Shown here: positions 349-16,520 of the stretch, in pieces
How the letters are laid out: every line of letters begins with the position of its first letter
How positions within the stretch are numbered: the stretch's first letter is position 1
IMG/VR virus record: IMGVR_UViG_3300010261_000182
Direction: 5' to 3' (one strand)
Origin: a virus
Taxonomy: Duplodnaviria; Heunggongvirae; Uroviricota; Caudoviricetes
Length of the DNA: 18,280 bases
Position numbers and translations under genes: made by a program
The notes under the pieces: model-generated
The model's input: the letters and a program-made list of their open reading frames with translations, nothing else
Told to the model about the DNA's origin: nothing
Databases searched by the model: none

Positions 349-569
349 TTTTCATCTCCATATATCTTGCATCCTGAATAAGACCCGATGCGTGTAAAAC
401 CACGGATATACGCTAAGCAGTTGTCATTACTGCTACTCAATACATTCAACAAACAAATAAACAATTAACAAAAATATAAATTTTTAATATTAATGAACGC
501 CATAAATTCATGAAATAGATATATTGTTTGCGTTATGTTTCTTGTCAACAGGTGTATCATTTTACACGA

Positions 570-589
570 TACTGTATACACATACAGTA
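570..589. promoter_or_regulatory. Candidate LexA (SOS) operator
   Basis: TACTGTATACACATACAGTA is a perfect 8-bp-arm palindrome that fits CTGT-N8-ACAG with TA flanks. It differs from the idealized TACTGTATATATATACAGTA only at two central positions. It lies between the divergent activator and lysis genes. Confidence 0.6.
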
Positions 590-885
590 TTATTTTTACT
601 TGTAGTGTAAAAAGATCGTTTCCCTCACAGTCGCTGACTTTCTTAAACAAACTTTAAAAATCAAATAACTATCGAATATTCCTACGATCCACCATCATCT
701 TTCCCCTGCATAATGATGCACTTGTTCGCCAGGTCACCTTTTGCTCTTTTATTGACGGGTGGATTTATTAGCGGGCATGTTCATTTATAGAGAATCTATT
801 TTTTAAACTTATTTATTAAAGCTTTTTTCATTCTTCACTGGCGGGTTCTGACGACACTAAACGCTCATTTATCAGGAGATATCGT

Positions 886-1173
886 ATGAAAAAAATCACA
901 TTTCCCCGGCTTTCCGGCTGGCTGGTCGCTTCCGTCGCGCTGTTTGTCGTGATCGGCTGGACCTCTTCCGCACAGATCCCGGTCGTCATTTATAAACTAA
1001 GCCTGGTTTCGCTTTCCGCGGTGCTGGGATACTGGCTCGATCGCAGTTTGTTCCCCTGGGCACGGCCTGACTCTTTTTGCCCCTGGAAGGAACCGCGTTG
1101 CTGCGCGGCGGCAATGATTCGCCGGGCTATCATCGTTGCTGCCGTCTGCCTTTCCGTCGCGTTAGGGCTATAG
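886..1173 (+). CDS. Small membrane protein, possible holin
   Basis: 95-aa ORF with AGGAG 8 nt upstream of the ATG. Three hydrophobic segments (WLVASVALFVVIGW, LSLVSLSAVLGYWL, AIIVAAVCLSVALGL). It sits immediately upstream of the lytic transglycosylase gene. It lacks the charged C-terminal tail typical of holins, so the call is positional. Confidence 0.4.
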   Translation: MKKITFPRLSGWLVASVALFVVIGWTSSAQIPVVIYKLSLVSLSAVLGYWLDRSLFPWARPDSFCPWKEPRCCAAAMIRRAIIVAAVCLSVALGL

Positions 1174-1175
1174 TG

Positions 1176-1781
1176 ATGTGGCTGAAATATATCGCGTCTA
1201 TGATTATTTTCGTTCTTTTCCCACTCAACGCCTCTGAACCGCCGAGAGCCTCTCTGGCATGGCGAAACGAACTAATTCGTACCGCTCGAGAAGTCTGGGG
1301 ACTGAATGCCCCAGTGGCCGACTTTGCCGGGCAATTACACCAGGAGTCCGCCTGGCAGCCAATGGTACGTTCCCCCGTTGGCGCACAAGGTATGGCGCAA
1401 TTCATGCCTGCTACAGCGACATGGGTAAGCCAGTTGTATCCGCAGTTGCGTGAAAACAAACCGTATAACCCAACCTGGGCGATTCGCGCGCTGGTGCAAT
1501 ATGACCAGCATTTGTGGAAAAACATCTCTGCGAAAAATGATTGTCAGCGTATGGCGTTTACCCTAAGCGCCTATAACGGCGGTCAGGGATGGGTTAATCG
1601 GGATAAAAAACTGGCCGCATCCAAAGGGTTAGATGCCACCATCTGGTTTGGTCATGTTGAGCACGTCAACGCCGGGCGTAGCGCCGCAAACTGGCGAGAA
1701 AATCGTCACTATCCGAAGATGATCCTCTATCAACATGCCGCCCGCTACCTACTCTGGGGGCAGGCAAGCTGTCTTCATTAA
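1176..1781 (+). CDS. Lytic transglycosylase (SLT domain) endolysin with signal-peptide-like N-terminus
   Basis: Family-1 lytic transglycosylase motifs are present: LHQESAWQP (catalytic Glu-Ser), GMAQFMPATA and AYNGG. The N-terminus MWLKYIASMIIFVLFPLNA/SEPP has an n-h-c signal-peptide layout. The start is ATG 1176 or GTG 1173; the track ORF from 1077 is a TTG-initiated extension overlapping the upstream gene. Confidence 0.75.
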   Translation: MWLKYIASMIIFVLFPLNASEPPRASLAWRNELIRTAREVWGLNAPVADFAGQLHQESAWQPMVRSPVGAQGMAQFMPATATWVSQLYPQLRENKPYNPTWAIRALVQYDQHLWKNISAKNDCQRMAFTLSAYNGGQGWVNRDKKLAASKGLDATIWFGHVEHVNAGRSAANWRENRHYPKMILYQHAARYLLWGQASCLH

Positions 1782-1793
1782 TCAGAGGGGCCG

Positions 1794-2108
1794 ATGAAAC
1801 TCAGTATCGATTTTTGGGAAGTGATCTCCCTTATGCTTTCCTTCGTTGGATTAATGTTTGCTGCCGGAAAATTGCTGTTAGCGCAAATTGAAAAAAGACT
1901 TAATGAGCGTTTTGAATCTCTGGAAAACGCGCGCCGGGAATCAGAAACAAGTTGGTCGAAACTGGAAAGAGAGTTTCTTGAATTTCGTGCCGAGCTTCCG
2001 CTGCATTATGTCCGCAGAGAAGATTATCTTCGTGGGCAAGCAGTATTAGAAGCAAAGCTGGATGCCTTATATAGCAAAATCGAGCTATTACAACGTGGCA
2101 GTTATTAA
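1794..2108 (+). CDS. Lysis-associated membrane protein (Rz/i-spanin-like or holin-like)
   Basis: 104-aa ORF with GAGGGG SD. One N-terminal transmembrane segment (VISLMLSFVGLMFAAGKLLL) is followed by a charged, helical, coiled-coil-like region. It is the last gene of the lysis cassette before a terminator. No embedded lipoprotein (o-spanin) ORF was recognised. Confidence 0.35.
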   Translation: MKLSIDFWEVISLMLSFVGLMFAAGKLLLAQIEKRLNERFESLENARRESETSWSKLEREFLEFRAELPLHYVRREDYLRGQAVLEAKLDALYSKIELLQRGSY

Positions 2109-2254: not shown

Positions 2255-2710
2255 ATGGAAATTTTATCTGTAATGAATTGTGTCGTGACAAGATTACGTG
2301 AGCACAACCCCGAAATGGACGTATTTATTTCATCTACGGATGCCCAGAAATATATTCCACAGACACAACAAGTTGCGGTGATTGTTAATTATAGCGGTTC
2401 TGTCTTTACCACGCCCGAAAGCAGTGATGCCATCGTGCAACAGCAAATACTTCGCTTAACCGCCACCGTTATTGTTGGCAAAAATTGTGACGCGTTAAAC
2501 GCACTTGATCACATACGCAGCGCATTGGGTGGCCTTCAGCTTCCTGATTGCGATCGTCTGCTTTGGCTTGAAAAAGAAATTAATACAGGTGAGAGCGGCG
2601 GTTTCTGCCGCTACATCCTAGAAATGGCGACCAGCTCGCTGTTTATCGCGAAACGGGAAAGCACGGACCTTACCCTGCTTACGGAAGTTAATTACGAGGA
2701 AACTGAATGA
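2255..2710 (+). CDS. Conserved Mu-like structural protein (gp37-like; tail completion/terminator candidate)
   Basis: 151-aa ORF, first gene after the terminator, directly upstream of the sheath gene and coupled to the next ORF by an ATGA overlap. The function is inferred from position in Mu-type late clusters and is weakly supported. Confidence 0.4.
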   Translation: MEILSVMNCVVTRLREHNPEMDVFISSTDAQKYIPQTQQVAVIVNYSGSVFTTPESSDAIVQQQILRLTATVIVGKNCDALNALDHIRSALGGLQLPDCDRLLWLEKEINTGESGGFCRYILEMATSSLFIAKRESTDLTLLTEVNYEETE

Positions 2711-2904
2711 AATACATCTACAACGGCCCGGCAAGCGGCGTCACCCTTGCCGACGGACAAGAAATCTTATTGTGGCCGAACAGTGAAATTGATCTGCCAG
2801 AAGACAACGAGTGGGTCATGACCATGATTGCCCGCAATCATCTGACTCCTGTCATCACTCAGGAAGAACAAAATAACGGAGAGGAAATTGTACATGGCAG
2901 CTAA
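2707..2904 (+). CDS. Small Mu gp38-like protein of unknown function
   Basis: 65-aa ORF coupled by ATGA overlap to the upstream gene and overlapping the sheath start. The call is positional. Confidence 0.35.
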   Translation: MKYIYNGPASGVTLADGQEILLWPNSEIDLPEDNEWVMTMIARNHLTPVITQEEQNNGEEIVHGS

Positions 2905-4318
2905 TTATCTGCACGGTGTAGAAACCATTGAAATTGAAACCGGCCCGCGTCCGGTTAAAGCGGTAAAATCCGCCGTCATCGCTTTAATCGGTACGGCCCC
3001 CTGTGGTCCGGTAAATAAACCAACATTATGCCTTTCTGAAAGCGATGCTGCGCAGTTTGGTTCGACTCAGACTAACTTTACGATCCCACAGGCACTGAAG
3101 GCGATTTATGACCACGGTGCCGGTACGGTGGTGGTGATTAACGTGCTGGATCCGGCAAAACATGGCTCCAACATCAGCAATGAGAGTATCACTTTTGATG
3201 CTAACAACCAGGCGAAACTCACTCACCGCAATGTGCGTAACGTGGTTCTAAAGCCCTCTTCATCAAATTCATCAACCTATAACACCGCAGCATTTAGCGT
3301 AGATGAACAAACAGGCATAATTACCCGTACAGGAGCCGACATTCCTCCTGGTGCGAAAGTTTGCGCCTATTATTCCTGGTGCGACCCTACAAAGGTCACC
3401 GCAGCCGATATTATCGGTGCCGTTAATACCGCAGGCGATCGCACGGGGATGAAACTGCTACAGGACACCTATAACCTGTATGGTTTCTACGCCAAAATCC
3501 TGCTTGCTCCCGTGTTCTGTACGCAAAAATCAGTAACTACAGAGCTGATTGCACAAGCGGAAAAACTTGGTGCGATTACCTACATTGATGCCCCGATTGG
3601 GACGACATTCCAGCAGGTATTGGCAGGACGCGGTTCGCAAGGGGCTATCAACTTCAACACCAGCTCTGATCGTGCGCGTTTATGTTACCCACACGTCAAA
3701 GTTTACGATGGCATCACTAACCAAGAAGTTCTCGAACCGCTCTCTTCGCGCGCTGCCGGGCTACGTGCCAAAGTAGACCTCGAAAAAGGTTTCTGGTGGA
3801 GCAACTCAAACCAAGAAATTCAGGGTATTACCGGTATTGAACGTTCGCTTTCCGCAATGATTGATGATCCACAAAGCGAAGTGAATCAGCTAAACGAAAA
3901 CGGCATTACCACTATTTTCAATAGTTACGGCTCTGGTCTGCGCTTGTGGGGCAACCGCACTGCAGCGTGGCCTACCGTGACCCATATGCGTAACTTTGAA
4001 AACGTCCGCCGGACAGGCGATGTAATTAATGAGTCAATCCGTTATTTCAGTCAGCAGTATATTGATATGCCGATTAATCAGGCGCTGATTGATGCCCTGA
4101 CCGAATCGGTAAATACCTGGGGCCGTAAGCTGATTGCCGACGGCGCACTGCTTGGCTTTGAATGCTGGTACGATCCGGCGCGAAATTCACCGACTGAACT
4201 CAGCGCCGGGCATTTATTGCTTAGCTATAAATTCACCCCGCCGCCGCCGCTGGAACGTCTGACGTTTGAAACTGAAATTACTTCTGAATATTTAGTCTCT
4301 CTGGAGAGCAATAGCTAA
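2894..4318 (+). CDS. Contractile tail sheath protein
   Basis: About 474 aa from ATG 2894, with GGAGAGG about 9 nt upstream; the track start at 2888 is TTG. Size and N-terminus (MAANYLHGVETIEIETGPRP) are typical of Mu gpL / P2 FI-class sheath proteins. It is followed by the tube gene with a TAATG overlap. Confidence 0.8.
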   Translation: MAANYLHGVETIEIETGPRPVKAVKSAVIALIGTAPCGPVNKPTLCLSESDAAQFGSTQTNFTIPQALKAIYDHGAGTVVVINVLDPAKHGSNISNESITFDANNQAKLTHRNVRNVVLKPSSSNSSTYNTAAFSVDEQTGIITRTGADIPPGAKVCAYYSWCDPTKVTAADIIGAVNTAGDRTGMKLLQDTYNLYGFYAKILLAPVFCTQKSVTTELIAQAEKLGAITYIDAPIGTTFQQVLAGRGSQGAINFNTSSDRARLCYPHVKVYDGITNQEVLEPLSSRAAGLRAKVDLEKGFWWSNSNQEIQGITGIERSLSAMIDDPQSEVNQLNENGITTIFNSYGSGLRLWGNRTAAWPTVTHMRNFENVRRTGDVINESIRYFSQQYIDMPINQALIDALTESVNTWGRKLIADGALLGFECWYDPARNSPTELSAGHLLLSYKFTPPPPLERLTFETEITSEYLVSLESNS

Positions 4319-4842
4319 TGGCTGGAAAAATTCAAATTAACCGTATTACCAACGCCAATATTTATCTCGATGGTAATAACCTTTTAGGTCGTGCAACCGA
4401 AATTAAATTGCCGGATGTCAGTTTAATTATGCAGGAGCATAAAGCACTGGGCATGGTCGGCAAAATCGAACTCCCGGCAGGTTTCGATAAACTGGAAGGG
4501 GAAATTAAATGGAACTCCTTTTATCAGGACGTCATGCGTAAAACGGCAAACCCGTGGCAGGCGGTAGCATTACAGTGCCGCTCCAGTATTGATTGCTATA
4601 ACTCCCAGGGGAAAGCGAATCAATTAGCGTTAGTGACACATTTAACCGTGATGTTTAAAAAGAATCCACTGGGCACATTTAAACAGAATGAAAACCCGGA
4701 ATTCAGCAGCGCCTTTGGCTGTACTTATATTAAACAAGTGGTCGATGGTGAAACGCTGCTTGAACTTGATTATATGGCGAATATTTTTCGGGTTAACGGC
4801 GTGGATCAATTAAGTACCTATCGCAATAACATCGGTGGCTAA
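4318..4842 (+). CDS. Tail tube protein
   Basis: 174-aa ORF immediately after the sheath gene with TAATG coupling. Size and position match Mu gpM / P2 FII-class tube proteins. Confidence 0.8.
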   Translation: MAGKIQINRITNANIYLDGNNLLGRATEIKLPDVSLIMQEHKALGMVGKIELPAGFDKLEGEIKWNSFYQDVMRKTANPWQAVALQCRSSIDCYNSQGKANQLALVTHLTVMFKKNPLGTFKQNENPEFSSAFGCTYIKQVVDGETLLELDYMANIFRVNGVDQLSTYRNNIGG

Positions 4843-4846
4843 TTTA

Positions 4847-4866
4847 TTCGGGGCTACGGCCCCGAA
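4847..4866 (+). other. Stable intercistronic stem-loop (8-bp GC-rich stem, 4-nt loop)
   Basis: TTCGGGGC-TACG-GCCCCGAA lies directly after the tube stop codon. No T-run follows, so it is not a canonical intrinsic terminator. Confidence 0.55.
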
Positions 4867-4892
4867 CTTCGCAAAATAAATAAGGATACAAA

Positions 4893-5210
4893 ATGAAAGA
4901 GCATTATATCTTACAGTTCCCGTTTACTTCAGCGGCGGGAGACGTAATTAACACTCTGCAATTACGTCGCCTGAAAGTAAAAGATATGCGCAACGCGCGC
5001 CGGATCAGCGAAAAACCTGAAGAGTGGGATGAACCGCTAATGGCAGCAATGACCGGACTGGTGCCAGAAGATTTAGCTGAAATGGATTTGCTGGATTACC
5101 AGGCATTGCAGAAACGATTTCAATCCATGCTTAGCGTGGCTACAGAATCCGCCACTGTTATGGCAAGCGATGGCGTTACTGGCGAGATGGTTTCGCTTTC
5201 CGCCCAGTGA
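4893..5210 (+). CDS. Tail assembly chaperone (lambda G / P2 E analogue)
   Basis: 105-aa acidic ORF lying between the tube and tape-measure genes, the conserved position of the frameshift chaperone. AAGGA SD. An overlapping +1-frame ORF (5053-5298) continues past its stop. Confidence 0.6.
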   Translation: MKEHYILQFPFTSAAGDVINTLQLRRLKVKDMRNARRISEKPEEWDEPLMAAMTGLVPEDLAEMDLLDYQALQKRFQSMLSVATESATVMASDGVTGEMVSLSAQ

Positions 5211-5399
5211 GATAGACGCCCTTACCGTCGATGACTTTAGCAACTGGCTGGATGAAGCCAGCGCCCAAATAAAAATCGAATATGACTCGCAGACCTGATG
5301 TCTGCGAGTTTCCCAAGCCCGTCAGGTTTATTTCTTCCCTGCCCCTTTTTTTAGAAAAATAACCAGCGGGCCATTATCAATATTTAAAGAGAAACAATT

Positions 5400-7775
5400 T
5401 TGGCCAACGATATTATTACCCAGCTTCAGGCGCGTAATGAGACGTTGACGCAGGCAATAGCCCGTTACGGCTCACTCAACGCCAGAACATTGTTAACTCT
5501 CTCTACTCAGCAGGCGACAGTTATCAAACTAACGCAGCAGCTTGCCGATTCCGCTCTCCGCCTGGAGGAAAATAGCCGCAGCCGCGCTAATCTGATGGAG
5601 AAAACCCAAACATTTGCCGGGCAATTTAGCAAAGTATTCAATGTTGAAGCCCCCGACTGGAAGTTGCCGTATGAGTTTCAGGACAACATGGTCAATATGG
5701 CGACCAAAGGTGGGATGAATGCTACAACCCGCGAGACGCTCAGCCTTAATCTGCGCGACTGGAGCATGGATTTTAACCAGCAGCAGACCACCTTACAGAA
5801 CGCAGCCCAAACGCTGATCGAAGGCAATTTGTCGTCGATACAGGATCTCAACCGTTATATGCCGGAGATCGCCAAAGCTGCCACCGCCACGCGCGAAAGT
5901 GCTGAAACATGGGCGAATGCCGCGCTCGCAACCCATGATCGACTGAATATTGCCCCGGAAAATTTCCACGCCGCGCAAAACATGATGTACGGCATTAGCA
6001 AAAGCGGTGGGCCTGCCATTGCTGAACAAACGCAGTGGATAGAGAAATTTGCAGGTAAAACCGGCGCTCAGGGTCTGGAAGGTATGGCTGAACTGACCGC
6101 CACCATGCAGATCGCCATGAAAAACGGGGCCAGCGCCAGTGCGGCGGCGGAGAATTTCGACCACTTTCTGCAAACCACCTTTTCGAAAAAAACCGATAGC
6201 TGGTTCGCCAGCCAGGGCGTCGATCTGCAAGGCTCTCTGCTTGAACATCAGCAAAACGGTATGGGTGTTAGCGAAGCCATGACTCATATCGTACAAATGC
6301 AGCTTGAGAAGATGAATCCGGCGATCCTCGACACCTTCAAACGCACTATGCAGATTGAAGATTTATCTGCTCGCAGCAATGCGCTGCAATCGATGGTAAC
6401 GCAATTTAATCTGGGCGAAATGTTCGGCGATGCGCAAACGGTGGAATTCCTGGCACCTATGCTGGCGAATATGGAGGAATATCGCCAGTTAAAAGCCTCT
6501 GCCATGCAAGCCACCAGCAAGAATCTGATTAACGCTGACTTTTCTGCGCAAATGGCCTCGCCCATTGAACAGACTAAAGCGTTACAGCTGGCATTAAATG
6601 ATTTATGGCTCAGCATTGGTTTGCAGCTTATGCCGGCGATTGGCGAGCTGGCACAAAGCCTTACGCCGGTTATTCGCCAGTTCAGCGCCTGGCTACGCGA
6701 ACATCCGGCGCTGGTGCAAAACATTGCGAAAATCGTCGGGGCGGTTTGGCTGTTTAACGGCGCGCTGAATGTTTTAAAGCTGGGCGCGAACCTCATCACC
6801 TCGCCGTTTATTCGTCTGGTCGATATCTTCCTGAAAGTCAAGGCAAGTCTGGCGCTCACAGGCGGGGCAAATAAGATGCTATCAGCGGTTAAGTCATTGG
6901 GTGGCGGCGCAAAATGGCTAATGCAACTGCTTGGTCGTGGCCTGATTGGCGCACTGAAACAGGTAGGTCAGACCGTCTTCTGGTTGGGTAGGGTTTTATT
7001 GATGAATCCCATTGGTCTGGTCATCACTGCGATTGCGGGCGCTGCTTATCTGATTTGTCGCAACTGGGAGCCTATCTCCAGGTTCTTTTCGACCATCTGG
7101 CAACGTATCACCACAGCCTTTGACGGCGGCATTGCAGGAATTTGTCGGTTGATTCTCGACTGGTCACCGCTGGAGTTGTTCTATAGCGCCTTTTCCAGTG
7201 TGATGAATTGGTTTGGTGTCGAGATGCCTGCAAGTTTTAGCGAGTTCGGCAGCAATCTTCTGGGCAGTCTGGTTGACGGCATAATGAATGCCTTCCCCGC
7301 TCTGAAAGGCATTATTGATCAGGTAAAAAACGCCATCCCAGACTGGCTAAAAACCACGATGGGTATTAGTACAGAAGGATCGGCTACAGCTATTACAAGC
7401 ACGACTAATACCGCATCCGTCTCCCCCGCGACCGTTGTTCCAGGCGTTGCCGGTGCGATTTTAACGCCGCCGGTGGGCAAACAACTCGCGCCATCCGGCA
7501 AAACGGCTACGCCGTCATCGGCGCCAGCGGCAAAAAATACAGCCGCCAAACCCGTATCTGCCTCTTTACCTGGTAAATCCGTAACCAAACCGGCGACGCT
7601 ACCCTCCCGTTCCTCAGGAAAAGTCCAGGTAAATTTTTCGCCACAGATTACCGTGCAGGGAAACGGACAAAACACCACTAAAGACATTCAGAACGTGTTG
7701 ACGATGAGTAAACGCGAACTGGAAAGAATGATTAACGACGTAATGGCGCAACAACAGCGCCGGGGGTATGCCTGA
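5400..7775 (+). CDS. Tail tape measure protein
   Basis: 791-aa ORF with a helical N-terminal region, internal hydrophobic segments and a Ser/Thr/Pro/Ala-rich low-complexity C-terminal region. It sits between the chaperone and baseplate genes. The apparent start is TTG 5400 with AAAGAG upstream, so the start is uncertain. Confidence 0.8.
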   Translation: MANDIITQLQARNETLTQAIARYGSLNARTLLTLSTQQATVIKLTQQLADSALRLEENSRSRANLMEKTQTFAGQFSKVFNVEAPDWKLPYEFQDNMVNMATKGGMNATTRETLSLNLRDWSMDFNQQQTTLQNAAQTLIEGNLSSIQDLNRYMPEIAKAATATRESAETWANAALATHDRLNIAPENFHAAQNMMYGISKSGGPAIAEQTQWIEKFAGKTGAQGLEGMAELTATMQIAMKNGASASAAAENFDHFLQTTFSKKTDSWFASQGVDLQGSLLEHQQNGMGVSEAMTHIVQMQLEKMNPAILDTFKRTMQIEDLSARSNALQSMVTQFNLGEMFGDAQTVEFLAPMLANMEEYRQLKASAMQATSKNLINADFSAQMASPIEQTKALQLALNDLWLSIGLQLMPAIGELAQSLTPVIRQFSAWLREHPALVQNIAKIVGAVWLFNGALNVLKLGANLITSPFIRLVDIFLKVKASLALTGGANKMLSAVKSLGGGAKWLMQLLGRGLIGALKQVGQTVFWLGRVLLMNPIGLVITAIAGAAYLICRNWEPISRFFSTIWQRITTAFDGGIAGICRLILDWSPLELFYSAFSSVMNWFGVEMPASFSEFGSNLLGSLVDGIMNAFPALKGIIDQVKNAIPDWLKTTMGISTEGSATAITSTTNTASVSPATVVPGVAGAILTPPVGKQLAPSGKTATPSSAPAAKNTAAKPVSASLPGKSVTKPATLPSRSSGKVQVNFSPQITVQGNGQNTTKDIQNVLTMSKRELERMINDVMAQQQRRGYA

Positions 7776-8728
7776 TGTATGCCGTTTTAGGAGAGATTGA
7801 ATTTAAGGTTGTCACATTCTGGGACGGCTTTAAAAGCACAATGGGCGTGGATTACGCCACACATGCCCGTATAGAAGGCAAACCCGGCGTGCAGTTTATT
7901 GGCGATAAGCTGGATATGCTGGCGCTGGAATTTTCCCTGCACAGCCAGTTTTGCCAGCCCACAACAGAGCTGAACCGACTGCGTGAAGCCATGCTTGCTC
8001 ACAAGGCGATGGCACTGGTATTTGGCAATGGCGATTATCGCGGCTGGTTTGTGATTACGGAGCTAACCGCCACCCACCAGCACACCGATCCCTGGGGCAA
8101 TGTGATTGCCCAAAACGGAACGATGTCGCTCCAGGAGTACACCGGCGATCCTAAAAATCCACTTTTACCTCCGGCGATTACCACCCAGGAGCCCAACATC
8201 GAGGAAAAGGCGAGCGATTTTCCCGACAAGGTGGAGTCCTGGTTTGATCAGATATTAAACGCCATTGAAGAAGGTATGCGTAAGGCCAAAGAGATGCTGG
8301 ATGAACTGACACAATCCATTGAAGATATTAAAAAAACGGTGGCAAAAGTGAAAGCAATGATTAAAGAGGCCAAAGCGTTAAAAGAAAAGTGTGAAAAGAT
8401 AATTACGTCATTGAAAAAGACAATCGACGCCATCGAAACCCTGTTTAAACAGCCAATGGATCTGCAAACGCTGGCAGGCCTACCAAAAGCGTTGTCGGCG
8501 CAGATTAAAGCTTTACTGGGTAACATGCCAGGTATCCGGGACTGCGCCAATGACGCCAGTACGCTGGTTGACCATGCTCAGGCGCTTTTCGACGACATTA
8601 CCAGCGACATCGCCGAAGCGACGTTCGATAAAGCCACGTCGTTGGTTGAGCAGGCACGTACAACGGTACAACAAACCACTCCCGCAGTGAGCCAGCTTGC
8701 TGCCGTAACCATTACCAGGAGCTGGTAA
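7775..8728 (+). CDS. Tail protein of the P2 gpU / Mu N (DNA circularization protein) family
   Basis: 317-aa ORF coupled by TGATG overlap to the tape-measure gene. The N-terminal ~130 aa (MYAVLGEIEFKV...DYRGWFVITEL) follows the gpU/N pattern as remembered. The C-terminal part is a K/E-rich helical extension. Confidence 0.55.
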   Translation: MYAVLGEIEFKVVTFWDGFKSTMGVDYATHARIEGKPGVQFIGDKLDMLALEFSLHSQFCQPTTELNRLREAMLAHKAMALVFGNGDYRGWFVITELTATHQHTDPWGNVIAQNGTMSLQEYTGDPKNPLLPPAITTQEPNIEEKASDFPDKVESWFDQILNAIEEGMRKAKEMLDELTQSIEDIKKTVAKVKAMIKEAKALKEKCEKIITSLKKTIDAIETLFKQPMDLQTLAGLPKALSAQIKALLGNMPGIRDCANDASTLVDHAQALFDDITSDIAEATFDKATSLVEQARTTVQQTTPAVSQLAAVTITRSW

Positions 8729-8937
8729 TGCGATACCTTGAACATATCACCACCGATGGCGAACGCTGGGATAACCTGGCATGGCATTACTACGGTGATG
8801 CGCTGGCTTATGAACGCATAATCGCCGCCAATCCACATGTAGCCATTTACCCGGTACTGCCTTCCGGTATTCAGCTCATTATTCCGGTCATTTCCGTTAA
8901 TAAAACCTTATCGGAGATCCCACCATGGCTGAGATAA
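8728..8937 (+). CDS. Tail protein X-like (LysM-like) small protein
   Basis: 69-aa ORF with TAATG coupling. GERWDNLAWHYYGD...IIAANPHVA...VLPSGIQLIIP matches the remembered P2 gpX pattern (GDTLD..YYG...ANP...LP.G..V.LP). Confidence 0.6.
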   Translation: MRYLEHITTDGERWDNLAWHYYGDALAYERIIAANPHVAIYPVLPSGIQLIIPVISVNKTLSEIPPWLR

Positions 8938-9965
8938 GCGTAACTGGTGGCGTCTTTGCCACACTCACGCCCATTTTTACCCTCTGGTATGGGCATAAAG
9001 ATATCACTTATGACATCACACCCTATGTCACCAGCATCAGTTACCACGACAGCATCAAAAACGAGTCGGATACCATCGCAATTACACTGGATGACACAGA
9101 TGGACGCTGGATAAAAGAGTGGTATCCCGGCAAAGGCGATACGCTGGCGCTGCATATGGGTTATCAGGGAGAGAAGCTGCTCGATTGTGGTCAGTATATT
9201 ATTGATAAAATTGATATTTCAGCGCCACCTTCCACGGTAAATATTGATGGCATCGCCACTTCCGTCAATCAGGCGCTGCGCACCCGTAACAGCCAGGGCT
9301 TTGAAGAAACGACGCTTTCGGCGATCGCCAGCCGTATTGCCCAAACGCACGGTCTGAAACTGGTGGGCAAAATCGAGTCGCTCACCATCGACCGGGTAAC
9401 GCAGTATGGTGAAACCGATGTCGGATTTCTCAAACGTATGGCCAGTGAATATGGTTATGCCGTAAAAGTGACGACAAAAGAGCTGATTTTTTCACATTTA
9501 CCCACGCTGCGCTGCCTGGCACCGGTAAAAAAGATCGAGCGCAAAGAGGTTTCTCATTTTACCTTCAAAGACACCATTAACCGGATCTACAAGAACGCCA
9601 CCGTACAGCATCAAAATAGTAAGAAAAAAGAACTGGTTATCTACACTCACGACAGCCAGCAAAAACCATCTGTCCGTGGAGTCGGCACTAGTGCCGACAC
9701 GCTAAAACTGAACAGTCGGGCGACGGACGTTGGCGCAGCACAGGCAAAGGCTAACGCTGCACTCGACAGCCACAACGAATATCAGCAAACCGGAACGCTC
9801 ACAATGATGGGCTGCCCGGAACTGACGGCGGGCAATAAAATCGAGCTAACCGATTTTGGCGTGCTTTCCGGTCAATGGCTAATTGATAAATCTACTCACA
9901 GTTTTGTGCGCAGCGGCTATACCACTGAAATCGACGTGTCGCGCGGGCCAGCGACCAGCCAGTAA
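8925..9965 (+). CDS. Baseplate hub protein, P2 gpD / Mu P-like (late control D family)
   Basis: 346-aa ORF. The segment ETDVGFLKRMASEYGYAVKVTTKELIFSHL resembles the conserved gpD-family core. It sits upstream of the spike gene. Confidence 0.65.
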   Translation: MAEISVTGGVFATLTPIFTLWYGHKDITYDITPYVTSISYHDSIKNESDTIAITLDDTDGRWIKEWYPGKGDTLALHMGYQGEKLLDCGQYIIDKIDISAPPSTVNIDGIATSVNQALRTRNSQGFEETTLSAIASRIAQTHGLKLVGKIESLTIDRVTQYGETDVGFLKRMASEYGYAVKVTTKELIFSHLPTLRCLAPVKKIERKEVSHFTFKDTINRIYKNATVQHQNSKKKELVIYTHDSQQKPSVRGVGTSADTLKLNSRATDVGAAQAKANAALDSHNEYQQTGTLTMMGCPELTAGNKIELTDFGVLSGQWLIDKSTHSFVRSGYTTEIDVSRGPATSQ

Positions 9966-9974
9966 GGAGGAAAT

Positions 9975-10634
9975 ATGAAAGGAGTAACCCGGCAAACGGG
10001 GATTATCAGCGATATTGACGAAACCAGCGTTCGGGTGCGAGTCACGCTCCCAGAGTGTGACAATCTGAAGAGCAACTGGCTTGCGGTACTTCAACGCAAT
10101 TCCCAGGACAATAAAGACTACTGGCTACCGGATATGGGCGAGCAAGTGGAAGTTCTGCTGGACAATAACGGTGAAGATGGCGTGGTGCTGGGCGCAGTTT
10201 ATTCTACGGTTGACACCGCGCCTGTGGCCTCGCGCGATAAACGTTACGTCCAGTTTTCTGATGGCGCAGCGTTTGAATATGACCGCAGCACGCACCAGCT
10301 GACGATTAACGGCGGTATCGAGAAAATCGTGATTGAGGTTATCGACCGTACCAGCCTGACATCGCCCAACGTTGAGATTAAAGCCCAACAGGTCATCGTG
10401 ACTTCCGATACTGTCGATGTTAAAGCGGCAGCAGTGACGGTAGATGCGCCCATGAGCACCTTTACTGGCAACGTCACGGTAATGAAAAAACTCACCTGGC
10501 TTGGCGGGATGGCAGGAAGTGGAGGCATCGGTAACGCCGCCACAATAACCGGCAATGTCAACGTGATCGGCAACGTTCAGGCCAGCGGCGCATTGCAGGA
10601 CAGTGGTGGCAACTCCAACCACCACTCACACTGA
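9975..10634 (+). CDS. Baseplate central spike, gpV-like
   Basis: 219-aa ORF with strong AAGGAGG SD. The N-terminal OB-like segment (NWLAVLQRN...YWLPDMGEQVEVLLDNNGEDGVVLGAVYS) matches the gpV pattern. The C-terminus is Gly/Asn/Val-rich and repetitive (GNVNVIGNVQASG) and ends in NHHSH. Confidence 0.7.
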   Translation: MKGVTRQTGIISDIDETSVRVRVTLPECDNLKSNWLAVLQRNSQDNKDYWLPDMGEQVEVLLDNNGEDGVVLGAVYSTVDTAPVASRDKRYVQFSDGAAFEYDRSTHQLTINGGIEKIVIEVIDRTSLTSPNVEIKAQQVIVTSDTVDVKAAAVTVDAPMSTFTGNVTVMKKLTWLGGMAGSGGIGNAATITGNVNVIGNVQASGALQDSGGNSNHHSH

Positions 10635-10639
10635 CGTTT

Positions 10640-10669
10640 AACCCGCCTGATGGCGGGTTTTCTCTTTTT
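10640..10669 (+). terminator. Rho-independent terminator or attenuator inside the baseplate region
   Basis: AACCCGCC (10640-10647), loop TGAT, GGCGGGTT (10652-10659), followed by TTCTCTTTTT. It starts 6 nt after the spike stop codon. Confidence 0.6.
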
Positions 10670-10732
10670 AATCAATCAGTTTTCTAAATCGCTTTAATAT
10701 CACCACAGCCCGTTCAGGGCGAAAATACCCTC

Positions 10733-11092
10733 ATGAACACAAAAACACGACCCTCAACGCTGCACTGGCAACCGGCCTTGCTGCGGCCTGAAGAATACGT
10801 CTGCGGACTGGATGATATTCACCAGGCAATACACATCATTCTGCGTACACCGCGCGGCAGTGATCCCCACAGACCGCTGTTTGGCAGCAACTTGTGGCAC
10901 TACATCGATTACCCCATCGAGCGGGCTATCCCGCATGTGGTACGGGAGTCGGTGGAAGCCATCCGCCAGTGGGAACCGCGCTGTCGGTTGCTGAAGGTGA
11001 CACCAGTAATCGACGGCGAACATCTGACGTTACGTGTGCAATGGCGCGCCGCTGACGGCGTTATCAACTCAACGGAGGTGTTATGGCGATAG
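10733..11092 (+). CDS. Baseplate protein, gpW / T4 gp25-like
   Basis: 119-aa ORF. IHQAIHIILRTPRGSDPHRPLFGSNLWHYIDYP matches the GPW/gp25 family pattern as remembered. Confidence 0.7.
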   Translation: MNTKTRPSTLHWQPALLRPEEYVCGLDDIHQAIHIILRTPRGSDPHRPLFGSNLWHYIDYPIERAIPHVVRESVEAIRQWEPRCRLLKVTPVIDGEHLTLRVQWRAADGVINSTEVLWR

Positions 11093-12198
11093 CCGAACCC
11101 AATTTTATTGACCGCGATCCTGCGCAAATTACCAGTGAGATGATTGCGCAATACGAAGATGCCAGTGGTAAAAAACTCTATCCGGCACAGGCTGAACGGT
11201 TGCTCATCGACCTGTTTGCCTATCGTGAAAACCTTGTACGCATCGCCATTCAGGAAGCGGCGAAACAGAACCTGGTCGCGTATTCCCGCGCGCCAATGCT
11301 GGATTATTTAGGGGAGTTGGTGGGCGTTCACCGTTTGCCTGCGCAGCCGGCAAAAACGACGTTGCAGTTTTCGGTCGTCAGCGCGTATACCAGCAATATC
11401 CTGATTCCCCAGGGGACGCGGGCCAGTGCCTCTGATAGCGTGATGTTCGCCACCGATGAAGATGTTCTGCTTCCGGCCAGGAGTTTGCATATCGCCGTTC
11501 CTGCCACCAGCCTCGCAGCAGGTGAACAGGGTAACGGCTGGCAGCCTGCACAAATTAGCGCACTGGTCGACAGGATTGGTCATTATGACATCAACGTAAC
11601 CAACCTGACTGCGTCAACGAGCGGCTGCGGTGAAGAGAGCGATGACGCATTGCGCCAGCGTATCCAACTGGCACCAGAAAGCTTTAGTAATGCGGGCAGC
11701 TATGGTGCCTACCGCTTTCATACGCTTTCTGTTAGCCAGTCGATTATTGACGTTGCAGTACTGGGGCCGGACGAGGGATTGCCAGAAGGCTGCGTGGAGA
11801 TCTACCCGCTAACCCTGAATGGTCTACCCGGCACGGAGTTGCTGGCGCAGATTGAACAAGAAGTCAGCAAGGAGAAAAAACGACCGCTGACCGACAAAGT
11901 GAGTGCGAAATGCGCTCTTCGAGTGCCGTATGAGATCCGTGCGCAGCTAACGCTGTTTACCACCGCCGATCAGGAGACAACGCTGGCTGCGGCGCGTAAA
12001 GCGATTAGCCTCTGGACGCAACAGCGGCAGAAACATCTGGGGCAGGACATTGTGCCAAACCAGATAATCAAAGTGTTACAGGTCGATGGCGTCTATGACG
12101 TTGCGCTGAATATGCCTACAAAACGTATTTTGCAGGCGCATGAGTGGGCGGAATGCACCGCAATAGACGTCACGATTGCCGGAGTCAGCGATGGATAA
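11083..12198 (+). CDS. Baseplate wedge protein, gpJ-like
   Basis: 371-aa ORF with GGAGG SD, overlapping the end of the gpW-like gene. Position and size match baseplate J family proteins. Confidence 0.7.
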   Translation: MAIAEPNFIDRDPAQITSEMIAQYEDASGKKLYPAQAERLLIDLFAYRENLVRIAIQEAAKQNLVAYSRAPMLDYLGELVGVHRLPAQPAKTTLQFSVVSAYTSNILIPQGTRASASDSVMFATDEDVLLPARSLHIAVPATSLAAGEQGNGWQPAQISALVDRIGHYDINVTNLTASTSGCGEESDDALRQRIQLAPESFSNAGSYGAYRFHTLSVSQSIIDVAVLGPDEGLPEGCVEIYPLTLNGLPGTELLAQIEQEVSKEKKRPLTDKVSAKCALRVPYEIRAQLTLFTTADQETTLAAARKAISLWTQQRQKHLGQDIVPNQIIKVLQVDGVYDVALNMPTKRILQAHEWAECTAIDVTIAGVSDG

Positions 12199-12907
12199 AT
12201 TGCTGCCACCGCCGCCGCTTGCCAGCGATGAGCGTTTTTCGATTCTGGCAAACATCGCCGCCGAGCGTTTTGCCCAACTCGATCTGACGGCGTTGATGGT
12301 TTATCTGGTCGACCTGGTTGATGCTTCGGCATTACCAGCCCTTGCAGAACAATTTCACGTTCAGGGGCTGGAAGGTTGGTTATTTACCACCGATGAGCGG
12401 GAGAAACGCGAGTTAATTAAACAAGCCATTGAACTGCATAAATATAAAGGAACAATTTGGGCGGTGCGGCGGGTGCTGGAAATACTCTCCTTACCCGGAA
12501 CTATTTCAGAATGGTTTGAATATGGGGGAAGGGCTTACTTTTTTAAGGTTGATATTACACTAGAGGAAAAAGGATTAAATGAAGATGAATTCAATGCACT
12601 TATCACATTAATTCATGAATATAAAAATGTCCGATCAAAGCTGGAAAGCATTGTTATTTGGCTTATTAATCGAAGCCCAATACCAGTTATTGGCAGTGCC
12701 ATGCAAGGAGGGGAAGTCATTACAGTATTGCCTCCTGTTGCAGAAAGCCTCAGCCAGTCATCTGGAATATTTTTAGCGACAGGTTATTGTGTGGAGGAAT
12801 ATATTCAACTACTACCTTATCAACCCGTTCGACTAACACAATCCCAACCGATGAAGGTCGGCACAGGATACTGGAGCACCGAAATTATGTCTGTATATCC
12901 GGAGTAA
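12191..12907 (+). CDS. Baseplate/tail protein, P2 gpI-like
   Basis: About 238 aa from ATG 12191, with GGAG at 12181-12184; the track start at 12176 is TTG. The N-terminus [22 protein letters not shown] is typical of the gpI family. The C-terminal half is markedly AT-rich. Confidence 0.6.
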
Positions 12908-12909
12908 TA

Positions 12910-14550
12910 ATGGCAAGTGAATTTTTTACAATATTAACTGCTGCAGGCAAAGCCAAAATTGCCTCAGCACTGGCCGAGCAAAAACAGATCCGTCTGCAAA
13001 CTATGGTAGTTGGCGACGGTAATGGTAAATATATCGAACCGACAGAAAGTCAGACCAAAGTAGTCCATGAGGTCTGGCGTGGTCAGCTCAATACATTAAA
13101 AATTGCGCCAGATAATCCGGCCTGGGTTATCGCAGAAGCGATTATTCCCGAACAAGTCGGAGGCTGGTATGTACGCGAAGTTGGGTTACTGGATACCGAC
13201 GGCACGATGGTCGCTATTGGTAAATTCCCGGAAACCTATAAGCCACGATTACCTGCGGGGGCCAGTAAGCAAATCGTTATACGCGCGGTCATGGAAGTCA
13301 CCAATGCAGATGCGGTGACGCTTTTGATCGACCCTTCAGTCGTTGTGGCAACCAGGGAATATGTCGATGACGCGTTGAAAACACATCAGCAATCACGAAA
13401 TCATCCTGATGCGACGCTGACACAAAAAGGTTTTACGCAGCTGAGTAATGCGACTAATAGCGATGATGAAACCAAAGCGGCCACGCCAAAAGCGGTAAAA
13501 ACGGCATATGACCTGGCAAATAGCAAAGCTGCCACCAGTCATAATCATGCCTGGAATCAGATTACTGGTATCCCTGATGGTACACTGACGCAGAAAGGAG
13601 TCGTTAAGCTTAACAATACAACAAATAGCACCAGTACGACGGAAGCTGCAACACCAAGTGCGGTTAAGGCAGCGATGGATAAGGCTATTGCTGCGGCACC
13701 GTCCAGCCATACCCATGCCTGGGGGCAAATAACAGGTATCCCCGACGGTACGCTGACGCAAAAAGGGGTCGTGAAACTTAATAATGCGACCAACAGCACC
13801 AGTACGACGGAAGCTGCAACGCCGAACGCTGTTAAGGCAGCGATGGATAAGGCTATTGCTGCGGAAAGCTGTCCTGTAGGGATGCCTATTCCTTGGCCAT
13901 CTGATTCTATACCTTCAGGCTACGCTCTGATGACAGGTCAGACATTTAATAAAGCCTCCTATCCCAAACTGGCAATTGCATATCCATCTGGTGTTATTCC
14001 TGACATGCGCGGATGGATAATTAAAGGAAAACCATCCAGTGGGCGAGCTATATTATCTACTGAACTGGATGGAATTAAATCACATAACCATACGGGCAGT
14101 ATTTCGAGTACTGATTTAGGGACAAAGGCAACATCATCTTTTGATTTTGGACACAAAACGACATCTGCCTCTGATCTTGGTTCTAAGACAACATCGTCGT
14201 TCAATCACGGAAGTAAATCGTCGACCAGCACAGGGGGCCATTCACATCAAATAACATGTAAAGGTGATGCTGATTACGGTGGCAATGCACTAACCGCTGA
14301 TTCTATAGGTGACTCTCGTTATGACTACGTTAATACCGATACTGTAGGTGATCACTCTCATACTACAGCCATTGGTACCCATGCACATACTATCGCATTG
14401 GGTAGCCATACACATGAACTTTCAATTGGCACCCATTCGCATTCAATTGCCCTTGGTTCCCATAATCACTCCCTAACCATTAATAATACCGGCAACACCG
14501 AAAACACCGTCAAAAATATCGCATTCAACTATATTGTGAGGCTAGCATGA
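12910..14550 (+). CDS. Tail fiber protein
   Basis: 546 aa from ATG 12910, with GGAG at 12901-12904; the upstream in-frame extension in the track is rejected. It has a conserved gpH/S-type N-terminus ([24 protein letters not shown]...MVVGDGNG), internal 56-aa tandem repeats, and a C-terminal region of short periodic repeats with five HxH motifs. Confidence 0.85.
13408..13866 (+). repeat. In-frame tandem repeat, period 168 bp, about 2.7 copies, inside the tail fiber gene
   Basis: Protein units [12 protein letters not shown]... / [40 protein letters not shown] / [40 protein letters not shown]. Copies 2 and 3 are near-identical at nucleotide level. The antisense ORF 13557-13799 shows the same peptide at both ends. 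Confidence 0.85.
14349..14469 (+). repeat. 27-bp (9-aa) periodic repeat encoding five HxH motifs in the tail fiber tip
   Basis: [42 protein letters not shown]; the repeat is also visible at nucleotide level (ggtacccatgcacatactatcgcattg / ggtagccatacacatgaactttcaatt ...). Confidence 0.8.
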
Positions 14551-15254
14551 ATACTTTTACCTTTTCCGATGAAGCTCAAATACTAACTGTATATAATTTT
14601 TCACAAGACTCCCAAGAATATATCGGTGAGTCTGATGCATACATTGCACCTAATACAGGCTTGCCAAATTATTGCACATTAATTTCACCTCCCGAAAAGG
14701 TTCCTGGTTTTACTCCAGTGTGGGAGAATGAAACATGGAGATTTATTGAAGATCATCGAGGCCAAACTGTTTATAACAAAGTTGATGGTAGCCAGCTTAT
14801 TATTCAAGAATTGGGCCAATTACCTGAAAATGTAACAGTCATTTCCCCGACAGGTTCTTTTGAACGTTGGGATGGTGAAAAATGGCAACCATCTATAACC
14901 GATGCTAAAGAGGCGAAATACTCTGCAATCAAAAATCAACGCGATGCCATCACAACCGATTACATCATCATCAACAACCATCACTTCCACAGTGATACAA
15001 ATAGCCGTATCCAGCAGCTCTCACTCACAAAAATGGGAGCGGAGAAAAAAATTCCGCCAGGGTTAATGTGGAAAACTAAAAATAATGGTCTGATCGAGTT
15101 AACCAACGAAATCGCCGCCCAGTTTGAATCGGTCACCATGGATCACGATATGCGCTTGTTCGCAAACGCCCAGCACCATATCGCGGCGGTGGAAGCACTG
15201 GACGATATTCAGGCGGTGCTCGACTACGATTATTCAACAGGCTGGCAACCATGA
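14547..15254 (+). CDS. Putative tail fiber assembly chaperone
   Basis: 235-aa ORF coupled by ATGA overlap to the tail fiber gene, with GAGG SD. The call is positional. The 5' half is AT-rich like the fiber tip, consistent with a co-transferred fiber/chaperone unit. Confidence 0.5.
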
Positions 15255-15691
15255 GTAAAACCACTGTCTGGCTCGCTTGTTATAAGGGCCGAACAGAGCA
15301 CCGTGGTATTGCCCGACTGGCTGACTGGCTTACCCGTAAAATCACACGCGGCAGTTATTCCCACTGTGAATTAGCCGTTAAGCATGGTGAAAAGAGTTAC
15401 CTTTGTTACTCCGCATCACTGCGCGATCGCGGTGTACGCGGAAAAATAATGCCATTGCCAGCGGATAAGTGGGATATGCTGCCGCTCCAGGCCAGCCTTC
15501 AGGATGTGGAAACTTTTTTCCGTAAACATGATGGCAAAAAATATGACTGGCGCGGAGCATTAGGAATTATTATCGGTAATAAAGAACAGCGCGATCGCCT
15601 GTTTTGCAGTGAATTTTGTGCTGAATTTCTGCAACTGAAGGAAAGCTGGCGCTATTCTCCAAACCACTTGTACGCTTTAGTCAGCAGTTAG
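15251..15691 (+). CDS. Hypothetical protein, possible permuted papain-like (NlpC/P60-LRAT/YiiX-like) enzyme
   Basis: 146-aa ORF coupled by ATGA overlap to the fiber chaperone gene. YSHCELAV (His-containing) lies upstream of LFCSEFCAEF (Cys-Ser-Glu-Phe), which is reminiscent of permuted NlpC/P60 catalytic motifs. This is a weak, unverified resemblance. Confidence 0.35.
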   Translation: MSKTTVWLACYKGRTEHRGIARLADWLTRKITRGSYSHCELAVKHGEKSYLCYSASLRDRGVRGKIMPLPADKWDMLPLQASLQDVETFFRKHDGKKYDWRGALGIIIGNKEQRDRLFCSEFCAEFLQLKESWRYSPNHLYALVSS

Positions 15692-15710: not shown

Positions 15711-15731
15711 CGCCGGGCTTTATGCCCGGCG
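15711..15731. terminator. Hairpin between convergent operons (candidate bidirectional terminator)
   Basis: CGCCGGGC-TTTAT-GCCCGGCG, an 8-bp GC stem. It overlaps the stop codon of the minus-strand nucleotidyltransferase gene and lies 20 nt after the + strand 146-aa gene. Flanking T-richness is only moderate. Confidence 0.5.
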
Positions 15732-16520
15732 CATTACCGTTTGATACAGCAAATTATCTAGCTCCCGAACATCTCCATCTCGACTGTCCGGTAAAATCGG
15801 TGGAATTTCCCCACGCGCCAGTTCCGCACGAATAAACGCATGTAACAAAGGACGGCGCGGACCATATTCCGCTTCTCCCGCGCGCTGTTTACGTTCCAGC
15901 AGTTCGTCTATTTCTACGCGTAACGGCGCATCAAGCTCGCTTCCCGCCAGTAACTCGGCAAAGCGCATTGGCGGCACGCCTTTTCCCGCTTCAACCCAGC
16001 GTACGGCCAGCAGCGGACGCAGCACGTAAAAGTATTTTTTCAGTCGAACTTCATCGCCCTGCAAATAGCCGCGGAAGTTTTTCTGCGCCATCGAATAGTA
16101 ATGCCAGCGTGCACGCAACGAAGAAAACCACATTGGGACCATTGCCTTAAGCGCCGTTATCGTTTCTTCATCTTGTTGATAGACCACCGGAGAATCCAGC
16201 CATTCTATCAGCGTCGGATTCGCGCCTTTCAATAATCCCAGCGCCTTACGCCACTCCCAACCGGAAACATCTAATTCGTCGTCGATGGGCAGCTCGATAA
16301 CATCGCGCGGTGACTCTACACGCAGATACCATTCCAGCGGATGGACATACAAAAACCGTACATCGTAGTCGCTATCGGGCGAGGCAAATCCCCAGCCGCG
16401 GCTGCCTGATTCGCAGGCGTACAGCACTTTCACGCCATAGAGACGTTCTATTTCTTTTAACTGCTGCGATACCCGTTCGCGCATCGCAGCACTGACTCCA
16501 TTTAATGGTATGTTACTCAC
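15720..16520 (-). CDS. Pol-beta superfamily nucleotidyltransferase
   Basis: 266-aa ORF. LYACESGSRGWGFASPDSDYDVRF fits the hG[GS]x9-13Dh[DE]h signature, with acidic residues downstream (IDDELD). The GTG start overlaps the upstream stop as GTGA; an alternative in-frame ATG lies at 16484. Confidence 0.7.
   Translation of the reverse strand: MSNIPLNGVSAAMRERVSQQLKEIERLYGVKVLYACESGSRGWGFASPDSDYDVRFLYVHPLEWYLRVESPRDVIELPIDDELDVSGWEWRKALGLLKGANPTLIEWLDSPVVYQQDEETITALKAMVPMWFSSLRARWHYYSMAQKNFRGYLQGDEVRLKKYFYVLRPLLAVRWVEAGKGVPPMRFAELLAGSELDAPLRVEIDELLERKQRAGEAEYGPRRPLLHAFIRAELARGEIPPILPDSRDGDVRELDNLLYQTVMRRA

Follow-up and report, generated by a model that had tools for sequence, protein, structure and literature searches.

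In Escherichia coli, recA is governed by an operator of the TACTGTAT-N4-ATACAGTA pattern, present as a single box between and over the -35 and -10 elements of a sigma-70 promoter, and the divergent uvrA and ssb genes have a single LexA box in common. Colicin operons, such as cea of colE1, place a lethal, lysis-coupled locus under direct repression by host LexA with no repressor encoded by the element; in their promoters a pair of overlapping LexA boxes closely follows the -10 element, and the operons lack a dedicated activator. LexA also controls phage antirepressors, among them Tum of coliphage 186 and those of the Gifsy prophages, which act on a phage repressor. Tailocins add an activator to such circuits. 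RdgB of Pectobacterium is a Mor-like activator that turns on tailocin and lysis functions after DNA damage, and RdgA, encoded next to rdgB, is a cleavable, cI-like repressor. The control of both pectin lyase and carotovoricin by RdgA and RdgB was reportedly described by Liu et al. in 1994 (cited in PMC3349551). For the R-pyocins of Pseudomonas, the SOS-sensitive repressor PrtR blocks the activator gene prtN, and PrtN switches on the tail and lysis genes (PMC12066065, PMC12297226). Phage Mu runs its late functions through a cascade of Mor acting at Pm and C acting at the late promoters (PMC4390567, PMC2582627), and the promoter targeted by Mor carries a 16-bp dyad centred near -43.5 (PMC4390567).

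The locus analysed here brings together elements of several of these systems. The window, by which is meant the whole 18,280-nt stretch of DNA that was analysed, holds a Mor-family activator gene (mor), a divergent lysis/tail operon and, in the spacer between them, a predicted LexA operator at positions 570-589. The interpretation that we favour, with slightly more confidence than doubt, is that this site is a functional, high-affinity LexA operator that overlies the core of the single conserved promoter region in the spacer separating mor from the lysis/tail operon, such that DNA damage would release mor and Mor would in turn activate a late promoter. A search of the literature returned no description of this locus or of the regulation of STM4219, the Salmonella counterpart of mor. 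A paper on an 'ST131 tailocin' was considered as a possible description of the island and set aside, as it concerns a P2-like prophage instead.

Results

A tailocin-like island at the lysC junction

The first 2.2 kb of the window matches 197 of 5426 complete E. coli genomes (~3.6%) at 95-100% identity and always on the chromosome; in E. coli A37, where the match is 100%, the island lies between lysC and yjbD/rluF. The same cluster is found at the same lysC junction in Salmonella, where the LT2 locus tags run from STM4219 (mor) to STM4212, and in an Enterobacter hormaechei lineage. Orthologues of Mor that are 80-100% identical occur in several enterobacterial genera. In the island, mor stands alone between lysC and a 537-bp spacer (349-885), beyond which the lysis cassette and the contractile-tail genes follow (Table 1). 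The Pfam assignments bear out the gene order given in a preliminary description of this DNA, which had placed a Mor-like activator on the minus strand and lysis and tail genes on the plus strand. The lysis cassette was recognised from Pfam (PF13272 and PF01464) and RefSeq annotation. Its genes resemble the lysis genes of BcepMu-type phages.

By Pfam and RefSeq annotation, the lysC-yjbD island contains no head, terminase, replication or integrase genes, and the same two sources gave no cI/PrtR/RdgA-like repressor gene in the island or at its borders, such that Mor is its sole regulator. Because its tail and lysis genes are unaccompanied by genes for a head, replication, integration or a repressor, it can be classed as an R-type tailocin-like cluster; by gene content it is a predicted chromosomal R-type tailocin derived from a Mu/BcepMu-like phage.

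In some E. coli alleles mor is only 342 nt long, two codons less than in the window (WP_001402759.1), and its 3' end has diverged; matches to these alleles begin at window position 19, the divergent region being 1-18. At the right end, positions 15720-17644 on the minus strand encode an RlaP-type nucleotidyltransferase (PF10127, E 4e-95) and a RefSeq slipin-family gene. These two genes are oriented against the tail operon, do not belong to the tail set and may be island cargo; the defence-system models of PADLOC gave no match to them.

Table 1. Observed and predicted features of the mor-holin spacer and its flanking genes (window coordinates)
Feature	Position	Strand	Details
mor, Mor/C-family transcription activator, 115 aa	1-348	-	PF08765, E 7e-38, profile positions 2-103 of 107; WP_000619864.1
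Conserved run, mor ribosome-binding site			
Conserved block CATTTTACAC	558-567		adjoins the box; left outer arm of the preliminary description; 27-30 of 30 at each position
Candidate promoter P_L, toward mor	559-598	-	-10 TAAAAT 564 to 559, 17-nt spacer, -35 CTGTAT 587 to 582
A-tract of P_L, like a proximal UP element	598 to 590	-	predicted start of P_L near 552
Candidate sigma-70 promoter P_R	561-588	+	-35 TTTACA 561-566, 16-nt spacer, -10 TACAGT 583-588; start near 595
Conserved run TTTACA	561-566		
Predicted LexA operator (SOS box) TACTGTATACACATACAGTA	570-589		low mismatch count, rarity, invariant half-sites
Conserved run ATACTGT	569-575		
Conserved run ATACAG	582-587		
Right outer arm GTGTAAAAAGAT	605-616		outside any conserved palindrome
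Conserved A/T-rich block TTAAACAAACTTTAAAAATCAA	645-665		inverted copy of the TTTTTAAAGTT motif, also at 800-810
Candidate Mor-dependent late promoter	795-858	+	A/T-rich block 795-822; TTTTCATTCTTC 824-835 replacing a -35
Conserved run TTATTTATTAAA	809-820		
-10-like hexamer GACACT of the candidate late promoter	853-858	+	GATACT in most genera
Conserved run, holin ribosome-binding site			
Lysis cassette	886-2108	+	holin 886-1173; SLT lytic transglycosylase 1176-1781; spanin-like membrane protein 1794-2108
Contractile-tail set	2255-15691	+	Gp37, sheath, tube, chaperone, tape measure, gpU, X, D, V, W, J, I
Contractile-tail set, remainder	within 2255-15691	+	tail fibre, fibre-assembly protein, one unknown ORF; Pfam and RefSeq

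A near-consensus LexA box in the spacer

The 20-mer TACTGTATACACATACAGTA matches the LexA consensus TACTGTATATATATACAGTA at 18 of 20 positions, with both mismatches in the central tetranucleotide, and is an exact fit to the recA-type pattern. It is the sole match to the consensus with three or fewer mismatches in the 18,280 nt, and 0 of 200 dinucleotide-preserving shuffles of the window yielded any such match. The looser pattern CTGT-N8-ACAG occurs once, against an expectation of 0.14, and at least once in 24 of 200 shuffles; alone, it is weaker evidence than the full consensus match. Strength was estimated with a weight matrix compiled for this purpose from 30 E. coli LexA operators, and all heterology index values are approximate. 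By this matrix the site has a heterology index of about 3.2, ranking fourth of 30 operators and ahead of recA, where the 30 operators themselves range from 2.0 to 12.5 and the runner-up site in the window, at 12432, scores 12.1. The matrix values for recA, umuDC, sulA and polB agree with those reported. For comparison, the peak of low heterology indices in E. coli was placed at 7.34 in a published survey (PMC12527982). The preliminary description had proposed a near-consensus, recA-type operator at this position and had suggested scoring it in this manner, and both the mismatch count and the index are in line with that proposal. It had also called the site a perfect palindrome, which is accurate for the arms ATACTGTAT/ATACAGTAT, a perfect inverted pair, but not for the 20-mer as a whole, since the central ACAC is not self-complementary. 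The box is 221 nt from the ATG of mor and 296 nt from the ATG of the holin gene.

The larger structures reported around the box fared less well. A 62-bp imperfect palindrome with 12-bp outer arms had been described as bracketing the operator, with the right arm at 606-617; the arm actually occupies 605-616, and the outer arms are centred at 586 and are not concentric with the box, centred at 579.5. When the spacer was simulated with a first-order Markov model, 12-nt inverted arms that pair at 11 or more positions within 60 nt turned up in 9% of the simulations. E. coli itself is polymorphic for the right arm (GTGTAAAA or GAGTAAAA), and the arm is missing in other genera, where partial conservation in its region is limited to AAAAAGATCG (609-618); of the two outer arms, conservation is confined to the left one, where it is accounted for by the predicted promoter hexamers. 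The palindrome was rejected as a unit on these grounds. The 8-mer GTGTAAAA, noted earlier as a recurring element, was likewise rejected as a repeated regulatory motif: its three copies are not above chance, with some 8-mer present in three copies in 26% of the Markov simulations, and, like the right arm, the copy at 392-399 is not conserved outside of E. coli.

Conservation of the box across enterobacterial spacers

Orthologous loci were drawn from species genomes, IMG/VR, metagenomes, Logan assemblies and E. coli alleles, and provided 35 distinct spacer sequences, 30 of which (from several enterobacterial genera) contain the LexA box and five of which have no box. At every locus with a Mor at least 81% identical to that of the window, mor is divergent from the holin gene. 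The 30 box-bearing spacers hold 19 different versions of the 20-mer, and the CTGT and ACAG half-sites are invariant in 30 of 30, with positions 578, 579 and 581 in the centre freely variable and a heterology index of 0.5-7.5 for all variants (by the same matrix). The mean column identity of the spacer across genera is 51-57%. Only six runs are conserved in the 537-nt spacer among nine diverse lineages, and the two halves of the box are two of them (Table 1). This pattern is the footprint that purifying selection on LexA binding should leave. In its core pattern, in its heterology index and in the conservation of its half-sites, the site corresponds to an E. coli-type LexA operator; the box is real, strong and under selection, and is best described as a predicted LexA operator.

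The distance from the box to the ATG of mor hardly varies, at 219-244 nt, or 291 nt in the one spacer with an insertion, and the distance to the holin gene is 296-347 nt. The insertion, in Superficieibacter electus, consists of 62 G/C-rich nt between 449 and 450, in the mor-proximal part of the spacer, and moved the box from ~230 to 291 nt from the mor ATG; the box sequence itself is unaltered.

The five spacers without a box form an Enterobacter-like lineage with Mor 88-90% identical to that of the window. In this lineage the box and the adjoining CATTTTACAC block have been lost together, and a plus-strand TATAAT-like hexamer stands in place of the box region (aligned to 556-590), with mor, holin and tail genes still intact. 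The cluster can therefore persist without the box, and the joint loss indicates that the box and adjoining block are one functional unit. Retention of the genes without the box, together with the distance of the box from both start codons, would be consistent with a relic of an ancestral phage SOS circuit that has no regulatory consequence in present-day E. coli. We consider such a relic improbable: half-sites that remain invariant over 30 spacers and 19 variants in a background of ~50% identity are not expected of a neutral sequence, and the disappearance of the adjoining conserved block along with the box points to one functional unit. Distant homologues of Mor (44-50% identity; Pasteurellaceae and one contig) are encoded directly after gemA, as in the early operon of Mu, and without a LexA box; the free-standing, divergent mor with its LexA box is therefore a derived arrangement of the enterobacterial tailocin.

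Insertion sequences in the centre of the box

Of the 197 genomes with the island, 11 have a split spacer. ISL3-family elements have entered the exact central 8 bp of the box (576-583) in three E. coli backgrounds as separate events (L024 1161-1190 and 2490-2520; L118; L119), each insertion having its own 8-bp target duplication. CREC-544 has ISKox3 in the box with the duplication ATACACAT and also a frameshifted sheath gene; isolate 648 has ISKox3 with the duplication ATACATAT; and AF14 has ISEc53 in the opposite orientation, carrying a ClbS/DfsB-family gene, with the duplication ATGCACAT. The repeated insertions reflect either a target preference of these elements or recurrent silencing of the switch.

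The recurrence of these insertions in the box centre could also be taken to indicate that the palindrome is the target of a factor other than LexA, such as Mor or a different dimeric protein, or else a structural element or an IS target, and Mor-family proteins do bind dyad elements (PMC4390567). This alternative appears highly improbable. The invariant CTGT and ACAG at an 8-nt spacing, the T/A flanks and the free centre constitute a pattern specific to LexA, the described Mor site has 5-bp repeats around a G/C-rich 6-bp spacer (PMC4390567) that are a misfit to the box, and there is no second copy of the box elsewhere in the cluster.

Candidate promoters over the box

The box overlaps predicted promoter hexamers on both strands (Table 1), where P_R, directed toward the holin gene, was called by a consensus scanner and P_L, directed toward mor, was read by eye from the sequence and alignment. 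The box covers the spacer and -10 of the predicted P_R. Although P_R is the sole promoter-like site returned by the scanner in 300-950, and was called in Salmonella as well, this match alone proves little because 2.7 such sites are expected by chance per shuffle of the A/T-rich spacer. The -35 of P_L, inside the box, matches the consensus at only 2 of 6 positions.

These features leave room for an arrangement in which LexA represses P_R alone, transcription passing through a ~290-nt leader into the lysis/tail operon, with mor outside of SOS control and regulated otherwise. In addition to being the only site to pass the scan in both E. coli and Salmonella, the P_R hexamer at -35 coincides exactly with a conserved run, the invariant C565 and A566 are explained solely by that -35, and the box-less Enterobacter-like lineage has its TATAAT on the plus strand at the same place. 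We nonetheless regard control of P_R alone as rather unlikely. It leaves the conserved A559, T560 and T-run at 593-596 unexplained, all of which P_L explains; its leader is unconserved between 670 and 790; and uncontrolled Mor ahead of the holin gene would be lethal, with no other regulator in the island to restrain it. The conserved CATTTTACAC block reaches beyond the hexamer of either promoter and a conserved T-run follows the box, and both observations fit P_L.

The most economical reading of the predicted hexamers is two fully overlapping, divergent promoters with one shared operator. The distances to the two start codons are weak evidence as to which gene is controlled. The biological logic favours control of mor by the box, given that Mor is the only regulator of the island and a candidate Mor-type promoter precedes the holin gene, at which uncontrolled Mor would be lethal, thereby requiring tight control of mor. 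It is possible, if short of probable, that a single LexA dimer acts as a two-way switch by occluding mirror-image promoters, each with its -35 on top of the other's -10, an arrangement that would make this widespread tailocin of E. coli and Salmonella (STM4219-STM4195) directly SOS-inducible without a repressor of its own, with the central 8 bp serving as a recurrent ISL3 target and natural off-switch of a self-lysis locus.

A candidate late promoter and other conserved blocks

The most conserved 20-nt stretch of the spacer falls in a block at 795-836, within a region (795-858) that looks like an activator-dependent, -35-less promoter for Mor. The block is 30-90 nt upstream of the holin gene, and the promoter-like region precedes the holin ribosome-binding site by ~20 nt. 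A comparable geometry, with a -10 and without a -35, is described for Pm of Mu, which depends on Mor (PMC4390567); a search of the block for a Pm-like 5-bp dyad with a G/C-rich spacer found no clear one. Lineages that lack the LexA box still conserve the 795-836 block, along with a second A/T-rich block at 645-665. The two A/T-rich blocks share the motif TTTTTAAA(G/C)TT in inverted orientation, at 650-660 (minus strand) and 800-810 (plus strand), a separation of ~140 bp.

The interval between these blocks (670-790) is not conserved between lineages. A 25-codon ORF at 712-789 in E. coli was considered as a conserved small ORF of the leader and dismissed, as it lies in the most variable region and, by eye, has no similarity to Salmonella. 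A search of the spacer for Rfam families gave one chance-level match (E 0.89). In Salmonella (L019 3610-3650, aligned to 605-640), a perfect 16-bp palindrome, CTCACGATCGCGTGAG, is followed by a T-run and is called terminator-like on both strands by the scanner; three GATC (Dam) sites lie within ~30 nt to the right of the box, where E. coli retains one (614-617) and has no such hairpin. The idea that the box is followed by a conserved hairpin or attenuator was rejected when RNAalifold returned no consensus pair among 11 lineages, and the Salmonella hairpin is therefore lineage-specific.

Discussion

The observed sequence of the box and its statistical rarity, the conservation pattern and the gene content of a repressor-less island are the basis on which we infer LexA binding, the positions and directions of the promoters and the action of Mor at the holin-proximal promoter. 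For the operator itself the case for SOS control is good, and direct SOS induction of the cluster is very probable. Under the favoured interpretation, in uninduced cells one LexA dimer would cover the spacer and a hexamer of each of the overlapping, mirror-image promoters P_L (to mor) and P_R (to holin). DNA damage would free the box through RecA-stimulated self-cleavage of LexA, allowing mor to be transcribed, and Mor would then activate the -35-less promoter just upstream of the holin gene, from which the lysis genes and a tail operon of roughly 15 kb would be expressed. P_R may contribute a direct, LexA-controlled read-through. LexA would in this manner hold the role that belongs to a cleavable phage-type repressor (PrtR, RdgA) in other tailocins.

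Several observations count against this interpretation: both start codons are over 220 nt away from the box, the one promoter that passes the scanner points away from mor, the -35 of P_L is poor, and the Enterobacter-like lineage lost the box with its genes intact.

The preliminary description had considered SOS control of a Mor-type activator to be foreign to the regulatory logic of Mu and closer to that of colicin and tailocin loci. The second half of that statement is supported by the presence of a LexA-type operator at a repressor-less, tailocin-like cluster, and, as the island is without a phage-type repressor gene, direct LexA control is a fair description that resembles the logic of the colicins. 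The implied novelty of placing a Mor-type activator under SOS control needs to be tempered, as RdgA and RdgB provide a precedent.

The locus appears to hold a tailocin switch wired straight to host LexA with a Mu-type activator retained, where the tailocins studied so far receive the damage signal through a cleavable repressor of their own (PrtR, RdgA). If correct, this would reduce the circuit to its minimum, one repressor, one activator and one late operon, in the two best genetic models, E. coli and Salmonella. The carriers of the island include many clinical E. coli isolates, and if the box works as predicted, fluoroquinolones and other antibiotics that induce the SOS response should cause these strains to lyse and release the tailocin, which bears on strain competition in the gut. 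The repeated IS insertions in the operator suggest a switch that is costly enough to be recurrently silenced.

The comparison with described systems places the locus at the intersection of host SOS genes, colicins and phage-derived regulation. The operator pattern is that of recA, as would be the position of a single box across the predicted sigma-70 hexamers. Unlike at recA, the box at this locus occupies the spacer of a divergent gene pair, over 220 nt away from each gene and with hexamers readable on both strands, and it accompanies a phage-derived activator and a lysis/tail operon rather than a repair gene. One box serving two divergent genes would be a trait shared with uvrA-ssb. The colicins resemble the locus in the proposed direct gating by host LexA without a repressor of the element, but the island has one box only (the runner-up being the site at 12432) and encodes an activator, Mor. 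In coliphage 186 Tum and the Gifsy prophages, host LexA likewise directly gates a phage-derived regulator, as is proposed here; the island differs in having no phage repressor and in that the regulated product is a transcription activator.

Among tailocins, RdgA/RdgB is similar in employing a Mor-like activator of tailocin and lysis functions, and differs in that the island has no RdgA-like gene and has a LexA box instead. The cascade proposed here from repressor to activator to tail and lysis genes parallels that of PrtR and PrtN, with the distinction that PrtR is a LexA-like protein encoded at the locus and PrtN is not a member of the Mor family, whereas host LexA is the proposed repressor of the island. 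With Mu, the locus shares a Mor-family activator and a candidate target in which an A/T-rich block precedes a -10-like hexamer and a -35 is lacking; the G/C-rich spacer of the Mu Mor site is not seen here. In Mu-type phages, mor ends an early operon after gemA under a phage repressor, in contrast to the island, where mor stands alone and divergent beside a LexA box.
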